DNA of 20,000 bases, taken from IMG/VR virus record IMGVR_UViG_3300021437_000016. One strand, 5' to 3'. Positions 649 to 19,985 of this stretch are shown here, piece after piece (position 1 is the first letter of the stretch; each line of letters begins with the position of its first letter). This DNA is from an uncultured virus (IMG/VR IMGVR_UViG_3300021437_000016). Taxonomy: Duplodnaviria > Heunggongvirae > Uroviricota > Caudoviricetes. The translations under genes were made by a program, and so were the position numbers. The notes under the pieces are model-generated. The model saw nothing but the letters and a program-made list of their open reading frames with translations. It was not told the DNA's origin and did no database searches.

Positions 649-2043
649 ATGTCAAACATCACCATTGTGTCGAACGACTCGAATGCCGTCGCCGCCTGGG
701 ACCCGAACTCGGGTGCTGCCCTCCCCGCCTACCTGACCGAAACGCTGGGTGAGCTTGGATCGAACATCCCGGATCGCCAGACGGTCCCCTCACTGTCGTA
801 TGAGGGCAAGGTCTGGACCGTCGTCAAGGACGGCAACAAGACCAAGATGCAGGCTCCCAACGCCGACGGCGACATGGTGCCGCTTCCGATCATGCGCGTG
901 GTCCTGCTGGACTTCAACGCGGACCGTGGCCGGGCCTACTATACCGGCACCTACAACCCGGCTGCCGCGTCGGCTCCCACCTGCTGGTCGGCGGACGGCA
1001 AGGCACCGGACGCCAGCGTCAGGGAGAAGCAGGGCGCTATCTGCCAGACCTGCCCGATGGCTGCCAAGGGATCGAAAATCCAGGACGGCAAGGAAATGGT
1101 CGCCTGCTCGCAGCATCGCATGTTGGCGGTTGTTCCGGCGTTCGACATCAGCGCGGACCCGCTGCGCTTGAAGATTGCCGTCACCAGCGATTACGACAAG
1201 GAGCTTGTCGAGCATGGCTGGTTCGCCCTGCGCCAGTACGTGGACTTCCTGAAGTCGCGCGGCGTCAACCACACCGGTCTGGTCGTGACCAAGATCAAGT
1301 TCGACGCCAACACGGCATACCCCAAGCTGCTGTTCTCGCTCGACCGCATCCTGAGTCCGGATGAGGCCGTGCAGATGAAGAAGGCGATCGCTAACCCCAA
1401 GGTGGCCGAGCTTCTCGCTGAGAAGTGGACTGCTGCTGGCACCAATGGCACGCCGATCGACGACGCGGATATTGCCCCGCAGCCGGCGCTTCAGGCTGAG
1501 ACGCCTGCTGCACAGCAGGTCATCGAGGCGGTCGCCACACCCGCCACTTCCCCGGTTGCCGCTGTTGTGTCTGCGACGGTCGCCCCGAGCGGTCTCGCTG
1601 CTGCTGTCGCCGATGGCTGGGTCCCGCACCCGAGCGCACCGGGCTACCACTACAAGGGCCAGGACGTGAAGGCCGACGCTGAGGTGGCTGCGCTGTACAC
1701 GGCTCCCGCACCGGTCGTGGAGGCCGCGCCGCCGCCTCCGCCTGTTGTCGAGGCTGCCCCGCCCCCGGTGGTTGACCCGATGGCTGCCGCTATCGCCGAT
1801 GGCTGGGTCCCGCACCCGGGTGCCCCGGGCTACCACTACAAGGGCCAGGACGTCGTTGCTGACGGAGACCTCGCCGCTCGTTACTCGGGAAACGGGTCTG
1901 TCGCTGCGGTCGCGGCTACGTCTCCCGCTACGACGGTAAGTGCGGCCACTGCCGAACCCGCAGTGAGCGCAAGCGCCACAGCAACCGCTTCCGATGAGCC
2001 GCTCGATCCGGCCGTCGCTGCGCTGCTCAACAAGTGGACCTGA
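649..2043 (+). CDS. Putative ssDNA-binding/annealing protein with Ala/Pro-rich C-terminal extension
   Basis: N-terminal ~260 aa has RAYY..Y, P-x-CWSADG..PD, CQTCP...GS and ACSQHRMLAV motifs, as in phage SSB-like proteins located next to primase/helicase genes. The C-terminus is low-complexity with two ADGWVPHPxAPGYHYKGQDV repeats. Confidence 0.7.
   Translation: MSNITIVSNDSNAVAAWDPNSGAALPAYLTETLGELGSNIPDRQTVPSLSYEGKVWTVVKDGNKTKMQAPNADGDMVPLPIMRVVLLDFNADRGRAYYTGTYNPAAASAPTCWSADGKAPDASVREKQGAICQTCPMAAKGSKIQDGKEMVACSQHRMLAVVPAFDISADPLRLKIAVTSDYDKELVEHGWFALRQYVDFLKSRGVNHTGLVVTKIKFDANTAYPKLLFSLDRILSPDEAVQMKKAIANPKVAELLAEKWTAAGTNGTPIDDADIAPQPALQAETPAAQQVIEAVATPATSPVAAVVSATVAPSGLAAAVADGWVPHPSAPGYHYKGQDVKADAEVAALYTAPAPVVEAAPPPPPVVEAAPPPVVDPMAAAIADGWVPHPGAPGYHYKGQDVVADGDLAARYSGNGSVAAVAATSPATTVSAATAEPAVSASATATASDEPLDPAVAALLNKWT
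1607..1853 (+). repeat. 61-bp intragenic direct repeat (1607-1667 and 1793-1853)
   Basis: The two copies differ at 3 positions, offset 186 bp, and encode ADGWVPHP(S/G)APGYHYKGQDV. Confidence 0.9.
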
Positions 2044-2202: not shown

Positions 2203-5200
2203 ATGATGACGGCTGGACAATTCCTGCGCGCTATCTGGCCCAGCAGCGGTAACTTCTGCACTGCGTACCCCATCCAGACTGACAGCGGAAAACCTGCTTG
2301 GTCGCATCACGTATTCCCGACTATTACCGAAGCCGTGTCCTTCGCGCATGAGAAGAAGCATATCAAGGATATGTACTTCGCCATGTTCACCCTCGAACAG
2401 CCAAAGGTATGGGACCCCACCAAGCCGGACTATAAGACCGGTGTACTCGGTGGGTGGACCTATCGCAAGAAGCCCAACATGCTCCAGACGCGTGTCCTTT
2501 ACTTGGACATCGACGTCAACAAGGGGCTGAATAGTTACCCTGAGCAGCGCGACGCTCTCATCGCCTTGGCTGTCTTCATCAAGAAGATCGGCTTGCCTGA
2601 GCCGCTGATCGTGAACTCTGGCTACGGTGTCCACGTCTACTGGCGCTTCCCGACCCCGATCTCCTCCGCTGAGTGGCAGCCGATGGCTGACCAGCTGCAG
2701 GCGCTGGCAGTGCATCACAAGCTGCACGTCGATCCAGCCATCACGACTGACTGCGCACGCATCCTCCGCATCCCGGAGACCATCAACCACAAGTTCGGTA
2801 AGCAGGCCGACGTCACGGTCCTCGCACCCGGCGTCGAGACCTCGGTCGACCACCTGAGGAAAGTCCTGTCGGATGCGGTCATCCGTGACTCGGTTGAGGT
2901 CGAGGCCACCAAGGCACCCCGGCTGCCGGTCATAGACAATGGCCTGAAGCAGCAGACGTTCAACGATTTCGGCCCGCCGCCCAAGCTGGGTGAGGTCGTG
3001 GCAGCCTGCGGCCAGGTGCGCAACATGGTCCGCGCGCACTGCGAGGCAGGCTTCGAGCACTATGGGCGTCTGCACCACAACGCATGGTACAAGGGCTTCA
3101 TCTCGACGATCGCGTATCTCGATCAGGGCGAGGACATCTGCCGCGACCTGACCAAGCTCTGGCCGCGCAACAAGTCGGACGTCGAGGCCAAGATCGTCCA
3201 GACCAAGACCCATGGACCGTCGAAGTGCTCGACCATCGAAGCGGTCGCAGCGTCCGAGATGCCATGGGGAGACAGCCCCTGCCGTGCGTGCAAGTGGCGC
3301 GATGATGCCAGTGTCCCCAACCCGCTGGTCGCCGCGCGCCGTGGTGCGTCGGCTCCGCAGCCGACGATGGCCCCGCCCCCTCCCCCGGTGCAGCCGTTGC
3401 TTGCTGCGGTTCCGCCAGCGCCCAACCAGACGCTGTTCGCTGCTCTGCTTCCGAACCCGCCGCACCCTTACAAGCGGACCCCGGGCTACGGCATTACGCT
3501 GACGCAGACGGACAAGGACGGGAATGAGAAAACCTCGGTCATCTATCCGAACGACCTCTACCCCCTCAAGCGCCTGCTCAACCACGACACAGGCACTGAG
3601 CAGCAAGTCTGGCGCGTGGTGCTTCCCCGCACCGGGTCGCGAGACTTCACCATCGACGCGGACGTCCTCTACGACTCCCGCAAGTTCAACGTGGCGATCG
3701 CCAACAACGGTCTCTACCCCAACAAGGCCGACATCCCGGCACTGCAGGACTATATGGTAGCCTATATCAAACAGCTTCAGAAAGACATGGACGGCGAAGT
3801 TCAGAAGTCCCACCTCGGCTGGACCGATGACTGCGCATCTTTCGTTGCCCCCGACAAGACGTTCATGCCTGACGGCTCGGTGCGCCAGACATCACTGACC
3901 ACGGCAGCCCAGCGCGCCGCCCAGCATATCACGCGCAAGGGCGACCTGCAGCGCCAGGTGGAGCTTCTGCGCTTCTACAACAACCCAGCCTATGTCGGAT
4001 CGCAATTCGCCATCCTCGCGGCGCTGGGGTCGATCCTGTTCCACTTCACCGGGCATCATGGTGTGGTGGTCAATATGTCCGGCACGGCCGGCGCGTCGAA
4101 GTCCACCACGCTGTACACAGCCGCCTCACTGTTCGGCCATCCCAAGCTGTGGTCCCTGAACGGAACCAACCAAGGCGCGACCATGAAGGGCCGGGCCCAG
4201 CGTATCGCGACCAGCGGCAATTATCCGACCTGCGTCGACGAGATCACCCACATGGGTGTCAAGGACGTCAACGACATGGTCATGGGTATCACGCAGCCCA
4301 ACCACCGCCTGCGCCTCCAGTCGGACGGCACCGAGCAGGCGATGCCCGACGGGTACAAGTCGGCGATCATGCTCTCGACCGCCAACAGCTCGCTGCACTC
4401 GGTACTGTCGCTGGACAACACGGCTGGTACGGCTGGCTCGATGCGCGTCGTGGAGCTGAAGTTCGTCAAGACCAACGTCCACACCAAGGCTGAGGCCGAC
4501 ACGTTCCTGCGTGAGATCGAGCAGAACTATGGCTGGATCGGCGAGGCGTTCATCGCCTTCGTGGTGCGCAACATCGAGCTGGTCCGCAACGCCGTGCAAC
4601 GTGTCATGCAACAGATCGACGAGGAAGCTGGTATCCAGGCAGCTGAACGCTTCTGGTCAGCACCACTCACGGTCGCGCTTGTGGCCTGCGACATCGCCAA
4701 CGCCCTCGGCCTTCTGGAGTACGACCGCGAAGTGATCCACCGCTGGTATGTCGATGCCCAGATTCCCTATATGCGCGGTGTCGTGAGTGAGGAGTACCGG
4801 ACACCCCTCGCCATCCTGACCGACTACATTGCCGAGAAGCACAGCAACATTGTGGTGGTCGATCGCACCTCTTCGATGGGCGTCAACACCGGCGGGGCGA
4901 AGGTCCCCAGCGAGACATCCTATGTGGTCGGACGGCCTCCGAGCGGCCCGCTGCTCGGGCACTACGACATGAAATCGCAGACGCTCTACCTGCTCAAACA
5001 GGCGTTCAAGGAGCATTGTGGCCGGATCGGTGCAGCGTCCACCCGGGTGCTCGACGATCTCTATGCGCCGCGCGAGGCCGGGTCCCGGACCCTGAAGCGG
5101 ATCGTCCCGGACCGATCGGCCCGGCGCACCCTTGGCGCTGGCACTGAGCTGGCGAAGGGCCAGAGCTGGTGCTTCGCTGTCGACATGAGCCACCCGGAGA

Positions 5201-5286
5201 TTTCCGGAGCCACACCACTGTCCACGGTTCAGGGTGGGGCCCAGGCTCCGACTGCGCCGGCGGGTAACCTGAGGAGCGTGCCGTGA
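2203..5286 (+). CDS. Primase-helicase: RepB-like AEP primase + Cys-rich domain + DUF927/Cch-like helicase
   Basis: AEP motifs YLDID, IVNSGYGVHVYW and D-x-ARILRIPETINHK; Cys cluster (ACGQV, KCSTI, PCRACKW); HLGW motif; Walker A-like GTAGASKST and Walker B CVDEIT. GAGGTG RBS at 2192-2197 favours ATG 2203 over GTG 2182. Confidence 0.85.
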   Translation: MMTAGQFLRAIWPSSGNFCTAYPIQTDSGKPAWSHHVFPTITEAVSFAHEKKHIKDMYFAMFTLEQPKVWDPTKPDYKTGVLGGWTYRKKPNMLQTRVLYLDIDVNKGLNSYPEQRDALIALAVFIKKIGLPEPLIVNSGYGVHVYWRFPTPISSAEWQPMADQLQALAVHHKLHVDPAITTDCARILRIPETINHKFGKQADVTVLAPGVETSVDHLRKVLSDAVIRDSVEVEATKAPRLPVIDNGLKQQTFNDFGPPPKLGEVVAACGQVRNMVRAHCEAGFEHYGRLHHNAWYKGFISTIAYLDQGEDICRDLTKLWPRNKSDVEAKIVQTKTHGPSKCSTIEAVAASEMPWGDSPCRACKWRDDASVPNPLVAARRGASAPQPTMAPPPPPVQPLLAAVPPAPNQTLFAALLPNPPHPYKRTPGYGITLTQTDKDGNEKTSVIYPNDLYPLKRLLNHDTGTEQQVWRVVLPRTGSRDFTIDADVLYDSRKFNVAIANNGLYPNKADIPALQDYMVAYIKQLQKDMDGEVQKSHLGWTDDCASFVAPDKTFMPDGSVRQTSLTTAAQRAAQHITRKGDLQRQVELLRFYNNPAYVGSQFAILAALGSILFHFTGHHGVVVNMSGTAGASKSTTLYTAASLFGHPKLWSLNGTNQGATMKGRAQRIATSGNYPTCVDEITHMGVKDVNDMVMGITQPNHRLRLQSDGTEQAMPDGYKSAIMLSTANSSLHSVLSLDNTAGTAGSMRVVELKFVKTNVHTKAEADTFLREIEQNYGWIGEAFIAFVVRNIELVRNAVQRVMQQIDEEAGIQAAERFWSAPLTVALVACDIANALGLLEYDREVIHRWYVDAQIPYMRGVVSEEYRTPLAILTDYIAEKHSNIVVVDRTSSMGVNTGGAKVPSETSYVVGRPPSGPLLGHYDMKSQTLYLLKQAFKEHCGRIGAASTRVLDDLYAPREAGSRTLKRIVPDRSARRTLGAGTELAKGQSWCFAVDMSHPEISGATPLSTVQGGAQAPTAPAGNLRSVP

Positions 5287-5573
5287 CTAACCTCGTACAG
5301 ATCGCAGCGACCCTTGAGGCGCTGGCAGCGAAGGTAACGCCGGGAGAGTGGGAGGTTGAACAGCCGCTGGATCATGAGTTGTGGCTGGTCGAAGCAGGCC
5401 TTCCCAACCCAGAGTGGCGCGTCATCAGCGGCCTACCTTTCCCCGATGAGAAGGGTGATATTCCGAAGCGTCAGGTGGAAGCCAATGCCGCCCTGATCGT
5501 CGCCCTGCGCAACAACCTCCCCACGATCATAACTGCGCTCAAGGCAATGGAGGAACAGACCGATGGCGAGTGA
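5283..5573 (+). CDS. Ead/Ea22-like phage protein
   Basis: LEALAAKVTPGEW...EANAALIVALRNNLP matches the TPGxW...NAxxI signature; GTGA overlap with the helicase stop; GAGGAG RBS. Confidence 0.75.
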   Translation: MTNLVQIAATLEALAAKVTPGEWEVEQPLDHELWLVEAGLPNPEWRVISGLPFPDEKGDIPKRQVEANAALIVALRNNLPTIITALKAMEEQTDGE

Positions 5574-5826
5574 CCTAGCACAGATCGAAGCGACCTGTCA
5601 GACGTGCCGGTGGTTCGTGAAGCATGAACCGCAGTTCATCTATGGCGATTGCCACCGCTACCCGGCGACTTTCAACTTTCACGCGAACATCAGTGACCCG
5701 GCAGAATGGAGGTCGGAGCGATTTAGGATCGATGTGATACGCGAGCGAAACGCTGTTTGGCCGAACATTCACCAAGATGAGTTCTGCGGCGAACACCAAC
5801 TGAAGGAACAGACCGATGGCGAGTGA
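5551..5826 (+). repeat. Perfect 23-bp direct repeat at two consecutive gene junctions
   Basis: AGGAACAGACCGATGGCGAGTGA at 5551-5573 and 5804-5826; each copy contains an RBS-like sequence, the next ATG and the previous stop. Confidence 0.95.
5563..5826 (+). CDS. Small Cys-rich (putative metal-binding) phage protein, 87 aa
   Basis: CQTCRWF...GDCHRYP...WP...FCGEH pattern; translationally coupled to both neighbours. Confidence 0.8.
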   Translation: MASDLAQIEATCQTCRWFVKHEPQFIYGDCHRYPATFNFHANISDPAEWRSERFRIDVIRERNAVWPNIHQDEFCGEHQLKEQTDGE

Positions 5827-6043
5827 TCTTGTAGAGCGGTTGCGGGACCAAGTGCCACAAGGAACGCCGTTGTCCGTATGCCATATGCTCGACGAAGCAG
5901 CCGACCGCATCACCGAACTGGAAGCGGAGGTCGAGCGGCTCAAGAACCTCGCAAAACAGAACAACAATTTGGCGAAGATGTACAAGCAGCAGGCCGACGA
6001 GTTTCGCGCCAAGTATGTCTCCGCAGCAGGAGGACCGGATTGA
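5816..6043 (+). CDS. Small coiled-coil phage protein (DLVERLR...EAADRITELEAEVERL family)
   Basis: Common phage early-gene motif; coupled start and stop. Confidence 0.8.
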   Translation: MASDLVERLRDQVPQGTPLSVCHMLDEAADRITELEAEVERLKNLAKQNNNLAKMYKQQADEFRAKYVSAAGGPD

Positions 6044-6291
6044 TGTTTGATCTACCGAAACGCTTGCAGACCGTGGCAAAAAACATTGAAGCGCTCGGCC
6101 CGGCCAGTACCAGTGCATACCTGCTTCAAGCGGCCACAGAACTGAATGCTCACCGCGACCGCATCACCCAGCAGGACGCGGTTATCGCGGGGCTGGTGGA
6201 GGCGCTGGAGCGCATCGCAAACATGGAAATGCACCCAGAGTTGATCGCCCGCGCCGCCCTCGCAAAAGCCAAGGAGAGCCGTGATGTCTGA
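6043..6291 (+). CDS. Hypothetical phage early protein, 82 aa (MFDLPKRL...)
   Basis: AGGAGG RBS and TGATG overlap at 6041-6045; LVEALERIA...IARAALAKA motif. Start trimmed from the 5878 ORF. Confidence 0.8.
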   Translation: MFDLPKRLQTVAKNIEALGPASTSAYLLQAATELNAHRDRITQQDAVIAGLVEALERIANMEMHPELIARAALAKAKESRDV

Positions 6292-6379
6292 ACCGAGCGC
6301 GTGGCTGTATGACTGCAATCCGCAAAAATACCGTTTGACAATATCGGACGCACCCTATATTCAATGGCGCAGGGGATGA
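6284..6379 (+). pseudogene. Probable truncated early gene (MSEPSAWLY..., 31 codons)
   Basis: Good RBS (AAGGAG) and an EPxAW-type N-terminus common in phage early proteins, but the frame runs into the AT-rich promoter and stops at 6379. Confidence 0.4.
6335..6361 (+). promoter_or_regulatory. Sigma70-type promoter with operator-like inverted repeat
   Basis: Consensus -35 TTGACA (6335-6340); -10 region CCTATATT/TATTCA (6354-6363); inverted repeat AATATCGG-N6-CCTATATT (6340-6361, 7/8 match). Confidence 0.7.
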
Positions 6380-6402
6380 CCTCGCCGACAGGAGAATGTG
6401 AG

Positions 6403-6606
6403 ATGACTACCGCCAGAACCTACAAAGGGTTTGAGATACGGAACAAGACTTGGAGCAAGGGCTATGCAGTCTACGATCCGAGGTTCCCGAAATCCCCGTT
6501 GCAGTTCGCTGATACGCTTGTTTTGGCCCGTGGCTGGATACAAGCCTACCGCAACGGTACCACTTGGGCGGTGCTTTCCGTTCTGAACGAGGGCGAGCGC
6601 ACATGA
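6403..6606 (+). CDS. Small orphan protein, 67 aa (MTTARTYKGFEI...), candidate anti-defence protein
   Basis: AGGAGA RBS at 6390-6395; first gene after the promoter; start trimmed from 6364. Confidence 0.75.
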   Translation: MTTARTYKGFEIRNKTWSKGYAVYDPRFPKSPLQFADTLVLARGWIQAYRNGTTWAVLSVLNEGERT

Positions 6607-6785
6607 TGGGCTGGCTGTTAAGTATCCTTCCGCGCAAGTGGCTTCAAGACGCGCTGTATGAGCAATTCTTGAGGACACTACCACGCGGAGAGTTTTGGCG
6701 GCTCCATCATTGGGGTGCAACTGGAAATCCGAAGCACCATGAGTTTCAATGGGCAGACCACATAGGAGATAACGATGGACGCTGA
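6603..6785 (+). CDS. Small Trp/His-rich orphan protein, 60 aa
   Basis: ATGA overlap with the upstream stop; its stop overlaps the next gene. Confidence 0.65.
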   Translation: MMGWLLSILPRKWLQDALYEQFLRTLPRGEFWRLHHWGATGNPKHHEFQWADHIGDNDGR

Positions 6786-6954
6786 TGACATGGCTGATGC
6801 TCTGACATGGCATCTGAATAAAGATAGTTGGAAGGCGGTTTTTCTTGGCCTTGGTGAGATCAAGTTCACCAATGAGAACGGCGATGAATACCGGCTTACT
6901 GTCGAAGAGTGGGATGCCGAGTGGGACGATAGTGTGCCGGAGGACGAAGATTGA
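6775..6954 (+). CDS. Highly acidic 59-aa protein, candidate DNA-mimic/anti-CRISPR (absent from the ORF track)
   Basis: Hand translation: MDADDMADALTWHLNKDSWKAVFLGLGEIKFTNENGDEYRLTVEEWDAEWDDSVPEDED; 19 D/E versus 4 K/R; AGGAGA RBS; stop overlaps the HTH TTG start (TTGA). Confidence 0.75.
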   Translation: MDADDMADALTWHLNKDSWKAVFLGLGEIKFTNENGDEYRLTVEEWDAEWDDSVPEDED

Positions 6955-7187
6955 CCCCCACCGACCTCCGCGCTGCCCGCAAGTCCCTCGGCTATACTCA
7001 GAAGCAGTTAGCCAAGGCCCTGCGCATGGGGAAGCATGGCTGGCAGACCATTAGTAAGTGGGAATCCGATGACTTCACCGGAACGATACCCGGACCTGTC
7101 CAGATCGCGCTTGAGCATATCGCGCACTGTCGCGGCGAGTACAGGAGCATGAGCGATGCGCATCGCCCTAGTGACATCGATCACTGA
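6951..7187 (+). CDS. XRE-family HTH regulator, Aca1-like
   Basis: LRAARKSLGYTQKQLAKAL...TISKWE HTH followed by IPGPVQIALEHIA; GGAGG RBS; last gene of the small-gene operon. Confidence 0.8.
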   Translation: MTPTDLRAARKSLGYTQKQLAKALRMGKHGWQTISKWESDDFTGTIPGPVQIALEHIAHCRGEYRSMSDAHRPSDIDH

Positions 7188-7975
7188 GCCTTGCGGAACC
7201 GGTAGATGCCGTTCTCATCCTGGTACATGAGCGGATTTCCAAGCCCTTCCTGCGCCGCCCACGGAGCAGGGCTCATGATCTGGTTGCGACGCAATGCTCT
7301 GACCTCTTGCTCGGTCGGCTGAGGGATACTGTTGGTCCGATAGTTGATATCGGTGGTGTTCTTGACATCAGCTGCGTGGGCGTTGACGAGGCCGATGTCA
7401 GCCTGCGCTCTTGGCCCCATCCACTTGGTCTGCTCTGCGGTGTTTGCTGCAGCTGCACGCATCTGTGCGATGTTGGCCTCCGTTTCCCCAGGCATCAGCG
7501 CTGCCTTAACGTCGTTAAGGCGCGAGCCTGACAGGTTCTGGGTATAGCCGCCGACAGTGTTCAGCATCAGCGCGGCTTCGGACGGCCTGTACCCACGGTT
7601 CAGATAGTTGTCGAGCGCGCCTGCTCCGCTCTCCCTACCACCCCACACCTGGATGTTGTTCTTGAACCCAGGAGTGGTCCAATTCTGGTAGTGCCCGTTA
7701 CCGATATCGGAGCTGTTGGTCAGCGTATGAGGATTCAGGGACCCGACGCTTTGGTTGCTCCCACGCACCTGTTGGTCGCTCTGGATGCGCCCCCCGGTGT
7801 TCGCGACTCCAGTCAGTGCCTGGATGCCTTGCGTGACAGGGGATGCCGGCTTCGGCGCAGCAGCCACAGCAGGCGTTACGGCAGGCTTCTTTGCCATGTC
7901 GGCAGTCGGCGCGGTCGGCCGCATGATCGAGTAGCTGGAGGCCAGAAGGTTGGCCATGTTGTCGGGGAGTTTCAT
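7181..7975 (-). CDS. Putative virion internal/ejection-type protein, 264 aa
   Basis: Last gene of the virion arm; rich in G/N/Q/A with a TEANIAQMRAAA helical segment; AAGGA RBS. Function inferred from position and composition. Confidence 0.5.
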   Translation of the reverse strand: MKLPDNMANLLASSYSIMRPTAPTADMAKKPAVTPAVAAAPKPASPVTQGIQALTGVANTGGRIQSDQQVRGSNQSVGSLNPHTLTNSSDIGNGHYQNWTTPGFKNNIQVWGGRESGAGALDNYLNRGYRPSEAALMLNTVGGYTQNLSGSRLNDVKAALMPGETEANIAQMRAAAANTAEQTKWMGPRAQADIGLVNAHAADVKNTTDINYRTNSIPQPTEQEVRALRRNQIMSPAPWAAQEGLGNPLMYQDENGIYRFRKAQ

Positions 7976-12884: not shown

Positions 12885-14069
12885 CTAGTCGCCCCAGAGG
12901 CCATCCCAGTAATCAATCACCAGAGTGCTTCCGGTAGTGGTGACGGTCTCAGATAAAATGGTTGCTGCGGTTGTGAATGGAATACCGCTACTGGTCACTC
13001 CATAATCGTTGGAGCGATTCACAACGCCACCGGTACCGGGATACTCCAGCACAGAGAACAGCCCAGGACTCCCCCATGCGCCGGGAAGGCTGATCGGTGT
13101 AAATGCGGAAACACCTGGGACAACCGCCCGCCGCAGGGTCGCCGCAACGATCGCCGGGTTTCCGTTGTTGTAGTCATACGGCGCGATATATCCTCCGGTC
13201 ACCGGAGCGGTTAACACAAAAAGAGGTGCATGCCAGTCCAGAGCCCAAACGCGGAGCTGATAACCTCCAGGAGAGACCCCGACGAAAATGCCTGGATCGG
13301 GTGGGTAGAATCCATGGATGTTGACGAACTCTCCGAAATCTACCGATTGTGTGCGAGCGTTAACGAGACTCCATGAGTACGGGCCGATGGAGTTCCGACA
13401 ATACCCAGGACCGACACTCAGAGACCCGCTGTTCCCTGTTTGGAGTATCGAAGTCCCGATTTGAAAAGAAGGTGATCCATTAAATGTCAGCCCGGAAATC
13501 ACGTTCATGCCGCTGCTTCCTGCGACCACGTCGATTGTGAGCGTGTCACTTGCAGTGTGATTAACTCTCGACACCCAGTTGTTTATCGTTGTGGACGCTG
13601 CGTACTGCACACCAGGAGTCCCGCTCAAGTTGAAAGCAAGGAGAAGGTTGTCCAGCGTATCGGTCAGCGTCGCTCCGATCTGGATGTGGCCGTCCGAATC
13701 CGTCAGAGTGTCTTGGAACGTATATGTGTGGCCGCCAAAAGAGAACGCATCACCGTCGATTGGATTGACCGCAAACCCGAGCGCAAACCGCGAATATACG
13801 GGAGGTACCCATTCGATCAGCTCGAAGTTCTTGGTCTGGAGCTCCAGGAGATGCGTCGTACCACTTGAGATCGAGACTCGGCTATTGCTGTCAATGAACG
13901 GCTTTCCCGCGTTCTGCGGATTGGTGCTTGGCAGCGACAATCCCATTGAGTCCAGAATCCGAGCGACGGTCGTCTTACCATCAGTGGTCCCACCTCGAAC
14001 AGCATACAGCTCTTCGTTGCCCTGCAGTGTGCCGAGATCAGTCTCGTTGGTGACCTTGGTATCAGCCAT
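12885..14069 (-). CDS. Putative tail fibre/receptor-binding protein, 394 aa
   Basis: MADTKVT...GKTTV N-terminal anchor-like motif, an LPSTNPQNAGKPF motif and a beta-rich G/S/T body; visibly more A/T-ending codons than its neighbours. Confidence 0.6.
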   Translation of the reverse strand: MADTKVTNETDLGTLQGNEELYAVRGGTTDGKTTVARILDSMGLSLPSTNPQNAGKPFIDSNSRVSISSGTTHLLELQTKNFELIEWVPPVYSRFALGFAVNPIDGDAFSFGGHTYTFQDTLTDSDGHIQIGATLTDTLDNLLLAFNLSGTPGVQYAASTTINNWVSRVNHTASDTLTIDVVAGSSGMNVISGLTFNGSPSFQIGTSILQTGNSGSLSVGPGYCRNSIGPYSWSLVNARTQSVDFGEFVNIHGFYPPDPGIFVGVSPGGYQLRVWALDWHAPLFVLTAPVTGGYIAPYDYNNGNPAIVAATLRRAVVPGVSAFTPISLPGAWGSPGLFSVLEYPGTGGVVNRSNDYGVTSSGIPFTTAATILSETVTTTGSTLVIDYWDGLWGD

Positions 14070-15551: not shown

Positions 15552-18233
15552 TTACGCGACCTTGCTCCGAACGCCAATAGCCGTTGTGCGGGCCCTGGCG
15601 GAGGCCTTTACCAGACGTGGTGCGGCAGCGTCCAGCACCATGACACGGCTCTCAGCCGGGAGGCGCACGATCCGCGCAGCCGCTGCGCTGAGGTTGATCG
15701 TCCTGCTGACGCGCTGCAGTGTGATGACCCGCGGTCCGATCGCGGGAGCACCGACCTGTGCCGCGAGCGCGAAGGCCGCATCAGTCTCGGTCGCCAGCCC
15801 GACATCGCCGACGTCCGGAGCGGTCGGAGCAAGTGCGTTGTCGTTCTCGGCAGCCAGGCCAACCGACATGATCTGGATCGGGGTCAGCGCGAGCGCTTCG
15901 TCCGTCTCTGTGGACACCCCAGCAGGTGAGCCTGCCACGTAACTCAGAGCGAAGGCTGTGTCAGACTCGATAGCGATCCCGGTATCCGTGACCTGGACCG
16001 GGCTCAGTGCGAGTGCATTGTCGTTTTCTGCCGACAGACCAGGCGCACGGATCGCCACTGAGGAGAGCGTGAGCGCTGTGTCGGCCTCTGTTGCCGCACC
16101 AGCCGCGCGGAGCTGCACCCCAGCCAGGGCCAACGCAGTGTCAGTCTCAGTCGAGATGCCGACCGCCTTGATCAGCTTGGCACCGAGTGTGAGAGACTGG
16201 TCGGTCTCAGCTGCAAGCCCTGCCGACGTCCCTGTGGTGCCTGTGAGCGGGATCGCGATATCGGTCTCAACGCTGACCCCTGCAGGGCGCGCGGAGCCGA
16301 GCGAGATCGCAGTGTCGGTCTCGGTGGCAGTAGCTGCCGGCCGTGCCGCACCGAGTGATGCCGCTGTGTCGGTCTCGGTTGCAGTCCCCACACCTTGGCC
16401 TCGACCAAGCTGCAACGCAGTATCGGTCTCAGTTGCAAGTCCGGCCGCCTTGAGCTGTACCGGCGTCAGTGCGGATGCGGTGTCGGTCTCAGCCGCAAAG
16501 CCAACAGTCCGGGCCCGGCCGAGCGGGAGCGCGGTGTCGGCCTCGGTCGCAACCCCAGCAGGGCGGGACACGCCAAGGGCAAGCGCAGTCTCGGTCTCGG
16601 TCGCGAGGCCCGCCGGGCGCGCTACACCAAGAGCAAGCGCAGTATCGGTCTCGGCCGCAAGTCCGCCGGCCCTGATCTGCACCGCGCTCAGAGCGAGAGC
16701 TGTGTCAGCCTCAGTTGCGAGGCCGGCTGCACGGACTTGCACCGCGCTAAGCGCGAGAGCTGTATCGGACTCAGCTACAAGGCCGACAGCCCTGATCTGC
16801 ACCGACGACAGCGACAGTGCAGTGTCGGCTTCAGTGGAGAGCCCGGCTGCTCTGGTCTGCACCGCGCTGAGCGCGAGAGCTGTGTCGGACTCGACAGCGT
16901 TACCTGTGGGTCGTGCGGCACCAAGCTGCAGCGCTGCGTCGGTCTCGGTCGAGGTGCCGACGGCTTTAATCTGCACCACACTGAGCGCTGACGCCGTGTC
17001 GGACTCTGTGGCTACTCCGGTTGCGCGGGCCTGCACCGCACTAAGCGCGAGAGCTGTGTCGGACTCTGTGGAAAGGCCAACGGCTTTGATCTGAACCGCA
17101 CTGAGCGCCAGCGCCGTGCCGGTCTCCGTGGAGATTCCGGTCGCTCTGATCTGAACCGCACTGCGCGCGAACGCTGTGTCTGCTTCAGTTGCCAGACCTG
17201 CAGTCAGCGACGCTGAGAGTGCAAGCGCTGTGTCGGTCTCAATGGAGAGCCCGGCTGACCTAACCTGTACCGCGCTAAGCGTGAGAGCTGTGTCGGCCTC
17301 GGTCGCCAGCCCTACTGCTCTGACCTGTACCGCGCTGAGCGCGAGAGCTGTATCTGTCTCAGTCGTGAGGCCTGCCGGGCGCGCGGAGCCGAGAGGGAGC
17401 GCAGTGTCAGCCTCAGTGGCGATACCAGCGGGCCGGGCCCCGCCAAGCTGCAGCGCAGTGTCGGTCTCGGTGGCGGTGCCGGCAGGGCGTGCGGAGCCGA
17501 GAGGGAGCGCAGTGTCAGCCTCAATGGCGATACCAGCGGGCCGGGCCCCGCCAAGCTGCAGCGCAGTGTCGGTCTCGGTCGCCATGCCGACAGCTGCTGA
17601 CGATCCCGAGCTCGCGCCGTAGGCAGAGAAGCCGGTAGGGATGGAGTAGGTAAACGCGGTCGCGCCGAAGTTCGCCGTCCACTGCTGGTTGGTCTCGCGG
17701 AAGAAGGCATAGACATATCGCTCGGTACCGCCGAACGTCACCGACATGCCATTGAGGTTCGAGCTGGGGTTGCCTGAGTCCAGCCACGTACCGTTGAGGC
17801 CGATGTAGTATTTCTCAAGCGTCTCGTCGTAGGCCAGCATCACAATATCGCCGGCTACTGGCGACGGTGAGCTCCCTACAAATCCGCCGTCATCATATGT
17901 GCCACCGCCATCGCTGCGTGAATTGGTGCGTGACGTCGTGCTGAACGGGGTCGATGAGGTTGTGTCGAAGCCTTCGTCGCAGAAGCCGAACCCACCCCAC
18001 GGAGTGCCGTTGGAGTTGATGGTGAACTCCATGTACGACTTGGTCGTGGCCGGCTGCGCCGATGCACGGACGACCTGGTCTGTGGCGCTCGCACTGGTAG
18101 TCGCTGTCAGATCGCCATTGGTGAGGACGATCGACGCGCCCTTGTTCGTCGTGCTCCAGGTTACGGTCGAGGAGCCGGATGCTGCTGAGCCGGGCGGGGC
18201 AAACGCATCTGGTTGAAACACGCCCGGCTGCAT
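15552..18233 (-). CDS. Repeat-rich fibre protein with N-terminal SPRY/ConA-like domain, 893 aa
   Basis: TWSTTNKGASIVLTNGDLTAT...KSYMEF...GDIVMLAYD...YIGLNGTW...ANFGATAFTYSIPTGF is a SPRY-like phage domain; it is followed by 32 repeats and an Arg-rich C-terminus. Confidence 0.8.
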   Translation of the reverse strand: MQPGVFQPDAFAPPGSAASGSSTVTWSTTNKGASIVLTNGDLTATTSASATDQVVRASAQPATTKSYMEFTINSNGTPWGGFGFCDEGFDTTSSTPFSTTSRTNSRSDGGGTYDDGGFVGSSPSPVAGDIVMLAYDETLEKYYIGLNGTWLDSGNPSSNLNGMSVTFGGTERYVYAFFRETNQQWTANFGATAFTYSIPTGFSAYGASSGSSAAVGMATETDTALQLGGARPAGIAIEADTALPLGSARPAGTATETDTALQLGGARPAGIATEADTALPLGSARPAGLTTETDTALALSAVQVRAVGLATEADTALTLSAVQVRSAGLSIETDTALALSASLTAGLATEADTAFARSAVQIRATGISTETGTALALSAVQIKAVGLSTESDTALALSAVQARATGVATESDTASALSVVQIKAVGTSTETDAALQLGAARPTGNAVESDTALALSAVQTRAAGLSTEADTALSLSSVQIRAVGLVAESDTALALSAVQVRAAGLATEADTALALSAVQIRAGGLAAETDTALALGVARPAGLATETETALALGVSRPAGVATEADTALPLGRARTVGFAAETDTASALTPVQLKAAGLATETDTALQLGRGQGVGTATETDTAASLGAARPAATATETDTAISLGSARPAGVSVETDIAIPLTGTTGTSAGLAAETDQSLTLGAKLIKAVGISTETDTALALAGVQLRAAGAATEADTALTLSSVAIRAPGLSAENDNALALSPVQVTDTGIAIESDTAFALSYVAGSPAGVSTETDEALALTPIQIMSVGLAAENDNALAPTAPDVGDVGLATETDAAFALAAQVGAPAIGPRVITLQRVSRTINLSAAAARIVRLPAESRVMVLDAAAPRLVKASARARTTAIGVRSKVA
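15751..17592 (-). repeat. 32 tandem coding repeats of 18 or 20 aa (54/60 bp), consensus xGLATETDTALAL(SAVQIRA|GxARP)
   Basis: Counted from the translation; includes a near-exact 108-bp-period duplication (17377-17471 versus 17485-17579, 2 mismatches). Confidence 0.9.
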
Positions 18234-18240
18234 AGCGGAA

Positions 18241-18768
18241 CTACCTCTTAGTCAGTGTCGCGTGCATGTCCTGCACCGCTTCCTTGTACCATGCCATCGC
18301 GAACTGCTGAAATTCCTGATTGCGCGTATGCAGTCCGGGATGCAGCGAATAGCCCCATGTAGCCTCGAAATCGCAGTCAAGTCCATCCGGATTGTACTGC
18401 TTGTCGCAGTGAGGTGCGTTTGCGTCCCGCCACTCGCGCTTCAGGTAATAGAAGAACATCTCACTGACCGGAGGCCACTGGTGTGTCATATCACCATATG
18501 CGCGGTTGCTGTTCCAATGCGGCACAATGATCGCTGCCTTCGCACCTGGCTTCATGACCCGGTACAGATCGTTCATGAAGAACATGCGTTCGTTAGCAGT
18601 CAGGTGCTCCAGGAAGTGCGAGGCGTGAACCTCTTCGACAGACTCGTCTGCAAATGGCAGAGGGTCTCGTCCGACCGCACAGACAACGTCAACACCAGGA
18701 AACTTGGCGACGTCGATGCCAGTGAAACCTTCTTTTTTGTTCGGGCCGCAGCCGATGTCAATTCGCAT
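18241..18768 (-). CDS. Class I SAM-dependent methyltransferase (Methyltransf_11-like)
   Basis: IDIGCG motif I; LPFADESVEEVHASHFLEHL; YRVMKPGA; DMTH. Confidence 0.9.
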   Translation of the reverse strand: MRIDIGCGPNKKEGFTGIDVAKFPGVDVVCAVGRDPLPFADESVEEVHASHFLEHLTANERMFFMNDLYRVMKPGAKAAIIVPHWNSNRAYGDMTHQWPPVSEMFFYYLKREWRDANAPHCDKQYNPDGLDCDFEATWGYSLHPGLHTRNQEFQQFAMAWYKEAVQDMHATLTKR

Positions 18769-18771
18769 TAT

Positions 18772-19224
18772 CTACCTACCAAGATATTGAGTTATGGCGG
18801 CTTCGTGCGTTTCGAGCCAGCCTAGCTTCGTGTTGCAGCGGTGGCAAAGGATGCCGCGAACGCACCCAGTCCTGTGGCAGTGATCCACGTGGGTACTGCG
18901 AGAGCTAGAAAAGGGCTCTGCGCAGATCAAACACAAACCGTTCTGCGCTGCGACCATGTCAGCTTTGTCTTGCCTTGAGATCCCGTACTTCGCTCGCAGG
19001 TGGTAATCCGCGTTGCGCTCCACGTGCTTGTGCGCGTTCCGACGATGCGACTGCCGCGCCAGCTCGTTATGTCGCTCGCGGTTCTCTTCGCGCCACTTGC
19101 GCATATACTCGCGTCGAACCGCTTTGTGTTCGTCGGTTCGTGCGAGGGCGGACTTGCGCTCGCGGTATGCTTGCACATTTTTGGCTCGGTACCGGGCGCT
19201 CTTCTCGGCAGACGTCAGCATCAC
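18772..19224 (-). CDS. Endonuclease VII-family (His-Me finger) free-standing, probably homing, endonuclease
   Basis: KYGIS...QNGLCLIC...HVDHCHRTGCVRGILCHRCNTKLG; basic N-terminal helix; AAAGGAG RBS favours GTG 19224 or ATG 19221. Confidence 0.88.
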   Translation of the reverse strand: MMLTSAEKSARYRAKNVQAYRERKSALARTDEHKAVRREYMRKWREENRERHNELARQSHRRNAHKHVERNADYHLRAKYGISRQDKADMVAAQNGLCLICAEPFSSSRSTHVDHCHRTGCVRGILCHRCNTKLGWLETHEAAITQYLGR

Positions 19225-19238
19225 GCGCGGCGCTCCTT

Positions 19239-19303
19239 TCAGTTGGTAGGGCACTACCATACTCACCAACTGATGTCCGCACAAGCGTCGTAGTGCCCTA
19301 CCA
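19239..19303 (-). promoter_or_regulatory. Alternative RNA hairpins directly upstream of the endonuclease RBS
   Basis: Perfect 14-bp inverted repeat (19244-19257 with 19290-19303) and a mutually exclusive 9-bp one (19239-19247 with 19265-19273). Confidence 0.6.
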
Positions 19304-19985
19304 GCACATCGCAGTCTACCGCACAGCGATAGCCATGCTTGCGTGCATCAGCCCAGAAGTAGAGGTCTTGAGTGCCTACCCCTTCACCCCCAGCACCGTT
19401 CAAGGTCTTGAACCACGGCTGGCGCAGCTTCTCGTCCTTGAACGTAGACACGCGCCAGAGATTGAAGCCCATGCCGGTTCCGCAGCACTCGACCAGCTCG
19501 TTGGGAACTGGGGGCTGGGGACGGAAGTTCAGCACCGGATCAGAGGGGTCTCCCCAAATCTGAGGTACACCGCCCTCACCCTTCGTCCAATACAGCCCAC
19601 CAACACAGGTGTACTCGGGGTGGTCCTCCATGCGTTTGATGAGCTTCACCAGTCCGTCGGGCGGAGGGATGTTATCATGCTCCATGGTCAGGATGTATTC
19701 CCAGTCCTTGAGGTCTGGGTGCTCCAGCACGAACTTGATGGCCTCGCTGTAGGCATCACCAACCTCCATTCCAAGGCAGAGCATCTTGAACACCGCTTGG
19801 TTGGGCGGGAAGATCAGGTTCCACTGCGCCAACGCGACCTTGGCTGGGATCATATTGGCCGAGGGCACCATGACGATGATGCGCTGCTTCTTCCATGTCG
19901 CACCTTCGAGGATGCGCGAGGCTGATGCCTGAAGGTCAAGGTTGTGCCGTCCGAGTCCGGGCACAACGATTTCGGGTTTGGTCAT
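19263..19985 (-). CDS. GT-A fold (GT2-like) glycosyltransferase, 240 aa
   Basis: YILTMEHDNIPPPD (DxD-equivalent), VGGLY, GTGMGFNL, PWF, TQDLYF (ED-equivalent) and VGHYD; AGGA RBS. Confidence 0.8.
   Translation of the reverse strand: MTKPEIVVPGLGRHNLDLQASASRILEGATWKKQRIIVMVPSANMIPAKVALAQWNLIFPPNQAVFKMLCLGMEVGDAYSEAIKFVLEHPDLKDWEYILTMEHDNIPPPDGLVKLIKRMEDHPEYTCVGGLYWTKGEGGVPQIWGDPSDPVLNFRPQPPVPNELVECCGTGMGFNLWRVSTFKDEKLRQPWFKTLNGAGGEGVGTQDLYFWADARKHGYRCAVDCDVLVGHYDACADISW

Follow-up and report, generated by a model that had tools for sequence, protein, structure and literature searches.

The known systems closest to the locus analysed here are the acr-aca1 operon of phage JBD30 and the acr-aca2 operon of phage ZF40. 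In both, and in the cassettes that we describe below, an inverted repeat lies over the core promoter, a hairpin directly follows the predicted transcription start and ends about 20 nt before the first codon, the cargo genes are small and variable, a helix-turn-helix (HTH) gene comes last, and extra copies of the motif occur without an HTH (PMC13551039). Mom, PAPS reductases and restriction-modification (RM) systems are also found in Aca-regulated operons (PMC13551039). Only 15% of Aca-like homologs lie near known or predicted acrs according to PMC9410906, which makes the layout a poor guide to CRISPR inhibition. The PeSL cassettes of T4-type phages also resemble our locus, as a conserved strong promoter and a stem-loop frame exchangeable small genes (PMC2839356).

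The cassette and its phage

The window, a 20,000-nt stretch from an uncultured virus (IMG/VR IMGVR_UViG_3300021437_000016), is part of a tailed phage, whose plus strand carries a DUF927 primase/helicase arm and whose minus strand encodes the virion genes. Among named phages, even the closest are only remotely similar (Pseudomonas phage Rollin, 27%; Rhizobium RHph_TM27A, 23%). The stretch was matched in freshwater metagenome runs, three of which are possibly its source, and no RNA dataset is listed among the runs that contain it. The 464-aa product of a gene at 649-2043 (+) is conserved in relatives, and its tail, rich in Pro/Ala, contains two copies of a small GWVPHP..PGYHYKGQDV module. An 893-aa protein encoded at 15552-18233 (-), ahead of the gene for a Gp77 fibre adaptor, consists mostly of acidic ETDTALAL-type repeats of ~20 residues and has no Pfam match. 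At 18241-19985 (-), just upstream of virion fibre genes, an endonuclease VII gene lies between glycosyltransferase-like and class I methyltransferase genes; this group possibly serves virion or DNA decoration.

The operon under study, whose 3' end abuts the convergent late arm, has the following features:

6335..6363 (+): sigma70-type promoter, -35 TTGACA at 6335-6340, 17 nt, -10 TATTCA at 6358-6363; spacing conserved in homologous cassettes
6340..6361 (no strand assigned): candidate operator, inverted repeat AATATCGG-N6-CCTATATT, 7/8 paired, which fills the space from the -35 to the -10 and overlaps each of them
6372..6386 (+): 5' leader hairpin GGGG-AUGA-CCUC plus GCC tail, conserved and covarying in the family
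6390..6394 (+): ribosome-binding site (RBS) AGGAG, ahead of ORF1
6403..6606 (+): ORF1, open reading frame of 67 aa
6603..6785 (+): ORF2, open reading frame of 60 aa (59 counting from the ATG at 6606)
6775..6954 (+): ORF3, open reading frame of 59 aa with its own AGGAG site
6951..7187 (+): XRE-type HTH regulator of 78 aa, TTG start, with a Pfam HTH_3 match

The genes overlap by 4, 11 and 4 nt at the ORF1/ORF2, ORF2/ORF3 and ORF3/HTH junctions, and ORF2 is apparently coupled translationally to ORF1. We discarded an alternative ORF1 start at 6364 (80 aa), since it precedes the point where transcription is predicted to begin, and since the start at 6403 agrees with the RBS and with most family members. 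The original prediction had read this locus as a candidate anti-CRISPR or anti-defence operon, and on rechecking the coordinates we found the four ORFs, their sizes and the TTGACA box all at the positions it gave. Its terminal XRE HTH gene was confirmed as well (HTH_3, 28.2 bits vs a cut-off of 23), and the protein continues for 20 residues beyond IPGPVQIALEHIA, where its end had been placed. The AT-rich patch in which the operon was said to lie exists, with 54.6% GC vs 61.2% in the window and a rank within the lowest 2% of 853-nt windows, but the dip already begins at ~5500 and the region at ~13250-13750 is equally low. The operator at 6340-6361 and the leader hairpin at 6372-6386 are additional elements absent from that first reading.

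The junction between the primase gene and the conserved late gene is spanned by 11 of 15 related-phage loci, and none of these 11 has the HTH, ORF1-3 or the leader. A metagenome contig from run X8 joins the leader (to 6405) to a close HTH variant (from 6951; 19 differences in 208 nt of HTH), skipping the cargo of the window, at a depth of 13.9 and with a short side of 35 nt. Cargo has been swapped between a fixed leader and a fixed HTH. The operon is a portable phage gene cassette in which promoter, operator, hairpin and the final, putative repressor gene are fixed and the tiny genes are interchangeable. Between the primase gene and the cassette, at 5283-6291 (+), lie four more small ORFs with no tblastn match in the 15 relatives, and metagenome contigs have many joints in this region, which is a second variable zone.

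HTH family, operator and leader hairpin

The window HTH, with the recognition helix GKHGWQTISKW ("W-type"), is the founding example of a family represented by profile A2, which was built from 12 members and with which all loci then collected were scored. Promoter shape, leader and RBS were the same in the three full-length relatives first found in viruses and in phage Pan3, with unrelated genes in between. A frame of TTG-type -35, GGG..CYY-RCC hairpin and RBS lies upstream of 40 of the 41 distinct HTH loci at or above 85 bits, a band that is partly circular and somewhat inflated since some A2 members were first found via the motif; the sole miss, L142, duplicates the L143 cassette in truncated form. 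The same frame occurs in 7/21 loci at 60-85 bits, 6/30 at 40-60 and 2/81 at 25-40, and the opposite-strand control gave 0, 0, 0 and 2 across the four bands (counted over distinct loci whose upstream flank is 450 nt or longer; 4, 3, 2 and 4 short-flank loci were dropped per band). A reverse search that starts from the DNA pattern is free of the circularity of the profile. An exact hairpin-variant pattern retrieved 67 loci, 66 of them distinct, and the family HTH gene follows on the same strand in 44 of the 66 (41 of the 56 with at least 1 kb), compared with 0, 0 and 1 of 66 in three controls. In IMG/VR, the two exact leader patterns matched 10 and 67 loci. A scan of genome contigs returned mostly generic XRE proteins and one close member, L054.

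Our literature searches, which did not include the motif logos of PMC13551039, found no description of this HTH family or leader motif; some members may belong to the Aca3 operon set of that paper. Two loci, L023 and L026, have tandem related HTH genes with small ORFs between them; the leader motif was found for the second gene only, and the other precedes the matched HTH by ~1.1 and 0.85 kb. The cultured phage Pan3 (ON968454.1) carries a cassette with the full leader and a second family-like HTH elsewhere (19047-19160 and 36914-37063), and is a possible experimental system for the cassette. An HTH homodimer prediction scored 0.18, which says nothing either way.

The promoter had originally been called dedicated, with the consensus TTGACA. 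This hexamer is not significant in itself, with six copies on the two strands of the window, and an E. coli-type promoter scan of the window made no call at 6335-6363 because the 17-nt-spaced -10, TATTCA, lacks the last T (-7T). The scan uses the E. coli consensus, and -7T is absent from many alphaproteobacterial promoters (PMC7703639). The case for the promoter thus rests on comparison with relatives, and in homologous loci it is conserved; transcription is predicted to start near 6370. A close relative of ORF3 (78%) is annotated in Novosphingobium sp., which together with the -10 lacking its last T makes it probable that the host is an alphaproteobacterium, specifically a member of the Sphingomonadaceae.

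The operator varies together with the protein. W-type members (G.xGWQ recognition helix) have TAT(A/C)G-N8-CTATA-type repeats, and R-type members (S..NGDRS recognition helix) have GCGG-N9-CCGC-type repeats containing TTACC. Scored as presence or absence of TTACC, operator type matches helix type in 37 of 39 cassettes, a count that, like its Fisher value, does not represent independent events, W and R being two related groups (L005 and L025 were untyped and left out). Promoter symmetry exceeds its own shuffle mean in 20/21 W-type and 11/15 R-type cassettes. Greater weight attaches to cassettes L009 (W) and L174 (R), which have three cargo genes in common and whose operators and helices differ in matching fashion. 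Both exceptions (L011 and L224) come from a single contig; they have the same first cargo gene with the ends swapped, which reflects either recombination across the common cargo or an assembly chimera. This 50.8-kb viral contig (G003) holds its two cassettes (L011/L264 and L224/L266) ~40 kb apart, each HTH with the operator of the other type. We predict that the HTH binds the inverted repeat and represses the promoter, which the operator-helix covariation supports indirectly and which we regard as very probable.

The leader hairpin starts at about +2 of the predicted transcript, whose start site is itself inferred, and stops 16 nt 5' of the start codon, a position that corresponds to the one reported for the Aca1 motif (PMC13551039). 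Its general form is GGG-N-loop-N'-CCC-GCC, with a single stem of 4-5 bp, a loop of 3 to 6 nt or more, and a GCC/ACC tail retained across the family; together with the RBS, the motif occurs once in the window. The search pattern constrained pairs 1-3 and left pair 4 free, and 28 of 30 distinct hairpins have a Watson-Crick pair there (13 G-C, 11 C-G and 4 A-U), covariation being judged by such pair counts. The outer pairs accept G-U, in the hairpin of the window as well, an argument for an RNA structure. The folding energy of single copies does not surpass that of shuffled sequences, and Rfam gave no leader match in window positions 5200-7400 or in five family loci.

The hairpin is constant across HTH types with differing recognition helices, and 15 of the 56 hairpin loci with at least 1 kb of downstream sequence have no HTH there; both observations are compatible with a role independent of the HTH. 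In the locus L013 (2001-2334), two leader copies 310 nt apart each precede a small ORF and are followed by more small genes. No HTH is seen in L013 or in L007, which is uninformative because both are fragments (22% and 17% complete). In the work reported in PMC13551039, the covarying motifs of Aca10 and Aca12 showed no protein binding, and RNA binding by Aca1 resulted in no translational silencing. By analogy with described Aca proteins, the HTH might act through the leader hairpin as well as through DNA, and to this we assign roughly even odds. Because operator and helix change together while the hairpin stays, W/R swaps can separate the two binding modes, and the family is a natural experiment on HTH proteins that bind DNA and, as predicted, RNA.

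Cargo proteins

The cargo genes of the window had been described as orphans and compared with small acidic acr genes. Indeed, ORF1-3 match no family in Pfam, NCBIfam or PHROGs, but ORF1 has a family of its own, and ORF2 and ORF3 have two and three close relatives, respectively. The acidic character holds for ORF3 (net charge -15, pI 4.05) but not for ORF1, which is basic (pI 9.99), or ORF2, which is neutral. The ORF1 family, itself unnamed, has the motifs YKG.., V.DPR.P and A..W..AYR.G..WA; 25 of its members likewise gave no family in PHROGs, and ORF1 had no match among annotated phages. The family search returned 32 hits, and five of these (P0013, P0014, P0017, P0020 and P0031) were rejected as repeat artefacts, being long low-complexity repeat proteins; they were kept out of the alignment (A5), as were three longer true relatives. 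The ORF1 model has four strands followed by two helices (pLDDT 83.7). Its fold search reached a best Z of 4.8, with Acr chains at Z 3.1-4.5 among unrelated proteins, and its best BFVD match had an E of 0.0055, with weak rows for polyvalent-protein domains.

The two viral homologs of ORF1 each come first after a TTGACT promoter that holds several CGATATC-type palindromes, next to an RHH-like gene on the divergent side (66 aa; RHH_1 E 0.013, below the cut-off). In both loci (L282:387-845 and L283:3723-4171) a common small Cys-rich ORF follows, giving a second cassette type. ORF1 thus recurs as cargo in a second kind of cassette, one that is probably self-regulated, and Aca14 is an RHH precedent (PMC13551039).

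ORF2 is Trp/His-rich and has one relative at 69% besides an identical record. ORF3, modelled at a pLDDT of 67.9, gave a best Z of 5.5 in the fold search and Foldseek E values of 0.05 or worse; neither ORF1 nor ORF3 (best Z 4.8 and 5.5) has a clear fold match to a known inhibitor, and the sequence search of the PDB with ORF1-3 returned no Acr match. The ESM Atlas has only unnamed clusters for the two (0.90 for ORF1, 0.77 for ORF3). AcrIIA4, which ORF3 may still resemble, is absent from both ORF3 fold lists. An ORF3 homolog (47%) at L284:3001-3159 lies directly after the N4-type RNAP1 gene of a 77.7-kb phage with no family HTH. We consider ORF3 the best anti-defence candidate of the three.

Across the family, a heuristic that also picks up some downstream genes called 142 cargo ORFs. 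These fall into 121 clusters, 103 of which are singletons; the median length is 77 aa, and the pI is above 8.5 in 59 and below 5.5 in 52. Names could be given to few of the 140 family ORFs (54 + 86) scanned with Pfam, NCBIfam and PHROGs: three DNA methyltransferases, two Mom proteins, one pentapeptide-repeat protein, one DUF1281 domain and, downstream of the HTH, one PAPS reductase. When these neighbours of HTH homologues were checked for known acr genes, none was named as an Acr, and no toxin family appeared. The same libraries leave AcrIF1 and Aca1 unnamed (NCBIfam) or list them under unknown function (PHROGs), so the negative Acr scans are weak. Mom and methyltransferases are classic anti-restriction functions, and methyltransferases are common in phages. 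The recognisable cargo points to DNA modification (anti-restriction) more than to CRISPR.

Interpretation and comparison with known systems

We read the locus as a mobile, self-limiting early expression cassette with cargo that acts in phage-host conflict, with a probability of roughly 0.55. On DNA entry, the host sigma70 polymerase would fire the promoter, and the cargo would be made in a burst. The HTH, as the last gene, would be translated by coupling, and would then bind the inverted repeat between -35 and -10 and shut the promoter. Taken jointly, the host-polymerase burst, coupled translation and operator repression seem highly likely. Like Aca2 and Aca1 with their hairpins, the HTH would probably also work via the leader hairpin beside the ribosome site, and the cargo would most likely act in phage-host conflict. 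We see an even chance that at least one of the three window proteins inhibits some host defence; CRISPR specifically is an improbable target. Tentatively, and with more doubt than confidence, we can extend this reading to an undescribed, widespread Aca-like family, mostly of alphaproteobacterial phages, that combines a swappable operator-helix pair with one common RNA hairpin. Its 15-17 nt leader would tag >100 unrelated small proteins, many of them new defence inhibitors including ORF1 or ORF3, and the HTH would read the hairpin independently of its recognition helix.

Other readings of the same evidence differ in what the cargo does. If this were a true anti-CRISPR operon, at least one of ORF1-3 would inhibit a Cas complex and the HTH would be a strict new Aca family. 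The layout agrees with acr-aca1 and acr-aca2 down to the hairpin position (PMC13551039), Aca3 is the closest structure, ORF3 encodes a small acidic protein, and scans that miss AcrIF1 and Aca1 say little by their silence. However, the count of named Acrs is 0/140, PDB sequence searches with ORF1-3 found none, the Acr chains in the ORF1 fold list reach only Z 3.1-4.5, and the named cargo is DNA-modifying, which leaves this proposal unlikely. A further alternative, less doubtful though still on the unlikely side, is an autoregulated accessory-gene platform with no special defence link, its cargo serving host takeover, superinfection exclusion or niche functions and its leader mainly mRNA 5'-end protection or recombination anchoring, as in PeSL. 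Cargo that is basic as often as acidic (59 vs 52 of 142), leaders that also occur without a nearby HTH, cargo swaps at cassette borders and the PeSL precedent itself (PMC2839356) are all consistent with it. However, the PeSL stem-loops are terminators in the account of PMC2839356, whereas the hairpin here has 4 bp, no U-tract and a place beside the RBS. The tight self-repression that we predict suggests cargo that is needed briefly, and the Mom and methyltransferase genes argue for a link to anti-restriction.

The HTH itself might instead have another role. In a reverse-order type II toxin-antitoxin pair (HigBA or MqsRA-like), ORF3 would be the toxin and the HTH the antitoxin; the gene order fits, and MqsA-like and HipB-like models match the HTH weakly, with every score well short of the cut-off. 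However, the gene before the HTH varies by locus, and one antitoxin family cannot neutralise unrelated toxins; with 0/140 ORFs matching a toxin family in Pfam or NCBIfam as well, this reading is very improbable. We give slightly less credence still to the idea that the HTH is a common Cro or immunity repressor controlling the phage life cycle, the small ORFs being incidental. Generic PHROG repressor matches would suit such a protein, as would the cassettes that follow integrase-like genes (L002 and L227, read by eye), but the HTH comes last in its own operon with no divergent partner, is absent at the junction in 11 related phage loci, and accompanies a leader motif and RBS that occur once in the window.

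New here are the operator-helix match, the covariation count at an unconstrained pair, the reverse motif test and the empty-site comparison. The leader motif can serve as bait at the DNA level without recourse to protein homology, and the 121 cargo clusters, nearly all unnamed, are a library for anti-defence screening in alphaproteobacterial hosts.

The acr-aca-like architecture that was first proposed for this locus is strongly supported by the conserved operator, the RNA hairpin, the hypervariable cargo and the terminal HTH. In the family, a small regulator gene closes an operon whose other genes are small and variable and which is carried by a mobile element, an inverted repeat is conserved in the core promoter, and a covarying hairpin lies between the inferred start and the ribosome site. 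As judged from these sequence features, the HTH works like an Aca, and strict Aca status depends on a link to acr. Its C terminus had been likened to that of Aca1; a P..VQ.ALE stretch does align, but overall identity is 25% (17/69, E 0.046 in a single pairwise comparison) and the HTH was rejected as an Aca1. The PHROG that holds Aca1 (phrog_3865) is not among its PHROG matches at E 0.1, nor is Aca1 among the 22 PDB hits of the family profile at E 1, and the published Aca1 operator and bulged RNA probe differ from the family motifs when compared by eye. Assignment to Aca2 (DUF1870) was rejected too, with Pfam Aca2_YdiL at 14.4 bits vs a cut-off of 23.8 and a length of 78 aa vs about 120 aa; the family profile gives E 0.16 against Aca2, which is put at twice the length and has a C-terminal dimer domain.

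In the PDB, the family profile matches Aca3 best (9vt3; E 8.7e-6, profile positions 2-39 only); the window HTH alone matches it at E 0.15. The third match of the profile (E 0.0024, positions 3-43) is 7xi5, named in the Aca10 structure paper (PMC9410881). Like the family members, Aca3 and Aca10 are small XRE HTH proteins with a TPA.L...RK..G.TQ start. However, the match stops short of the PGPV C-terminal helix of the family, and the operator and UTR of Aca10 differ from ours. Of the published RNA probes, that of JBD30 has a GCC after the stem, like the family, and that of ZF40 has an AUGG loop, like some members (PMC13551039). In contrast, the operator, hairpin and protein sequences of acr-aca1 and acr-aca2 all differ from those of the family, whose stem is a single GGG-N/N'-CCC of 4-5 bp and which has no linked known acr among 140 ORFs scanned with libraries that failed to name AcrIF1. 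In PeSL cassettes the stem-loops are terminators, and the text available from PMC2839356 mentions no dedicated regulator gene. Our family, unlike PeSL, has its hairpin within the leader, and the last gene of the unit encodes an HTH that matches the operator. Altogether, we regard the cassette as a new, Aca-like kind with predicted autoregulation.
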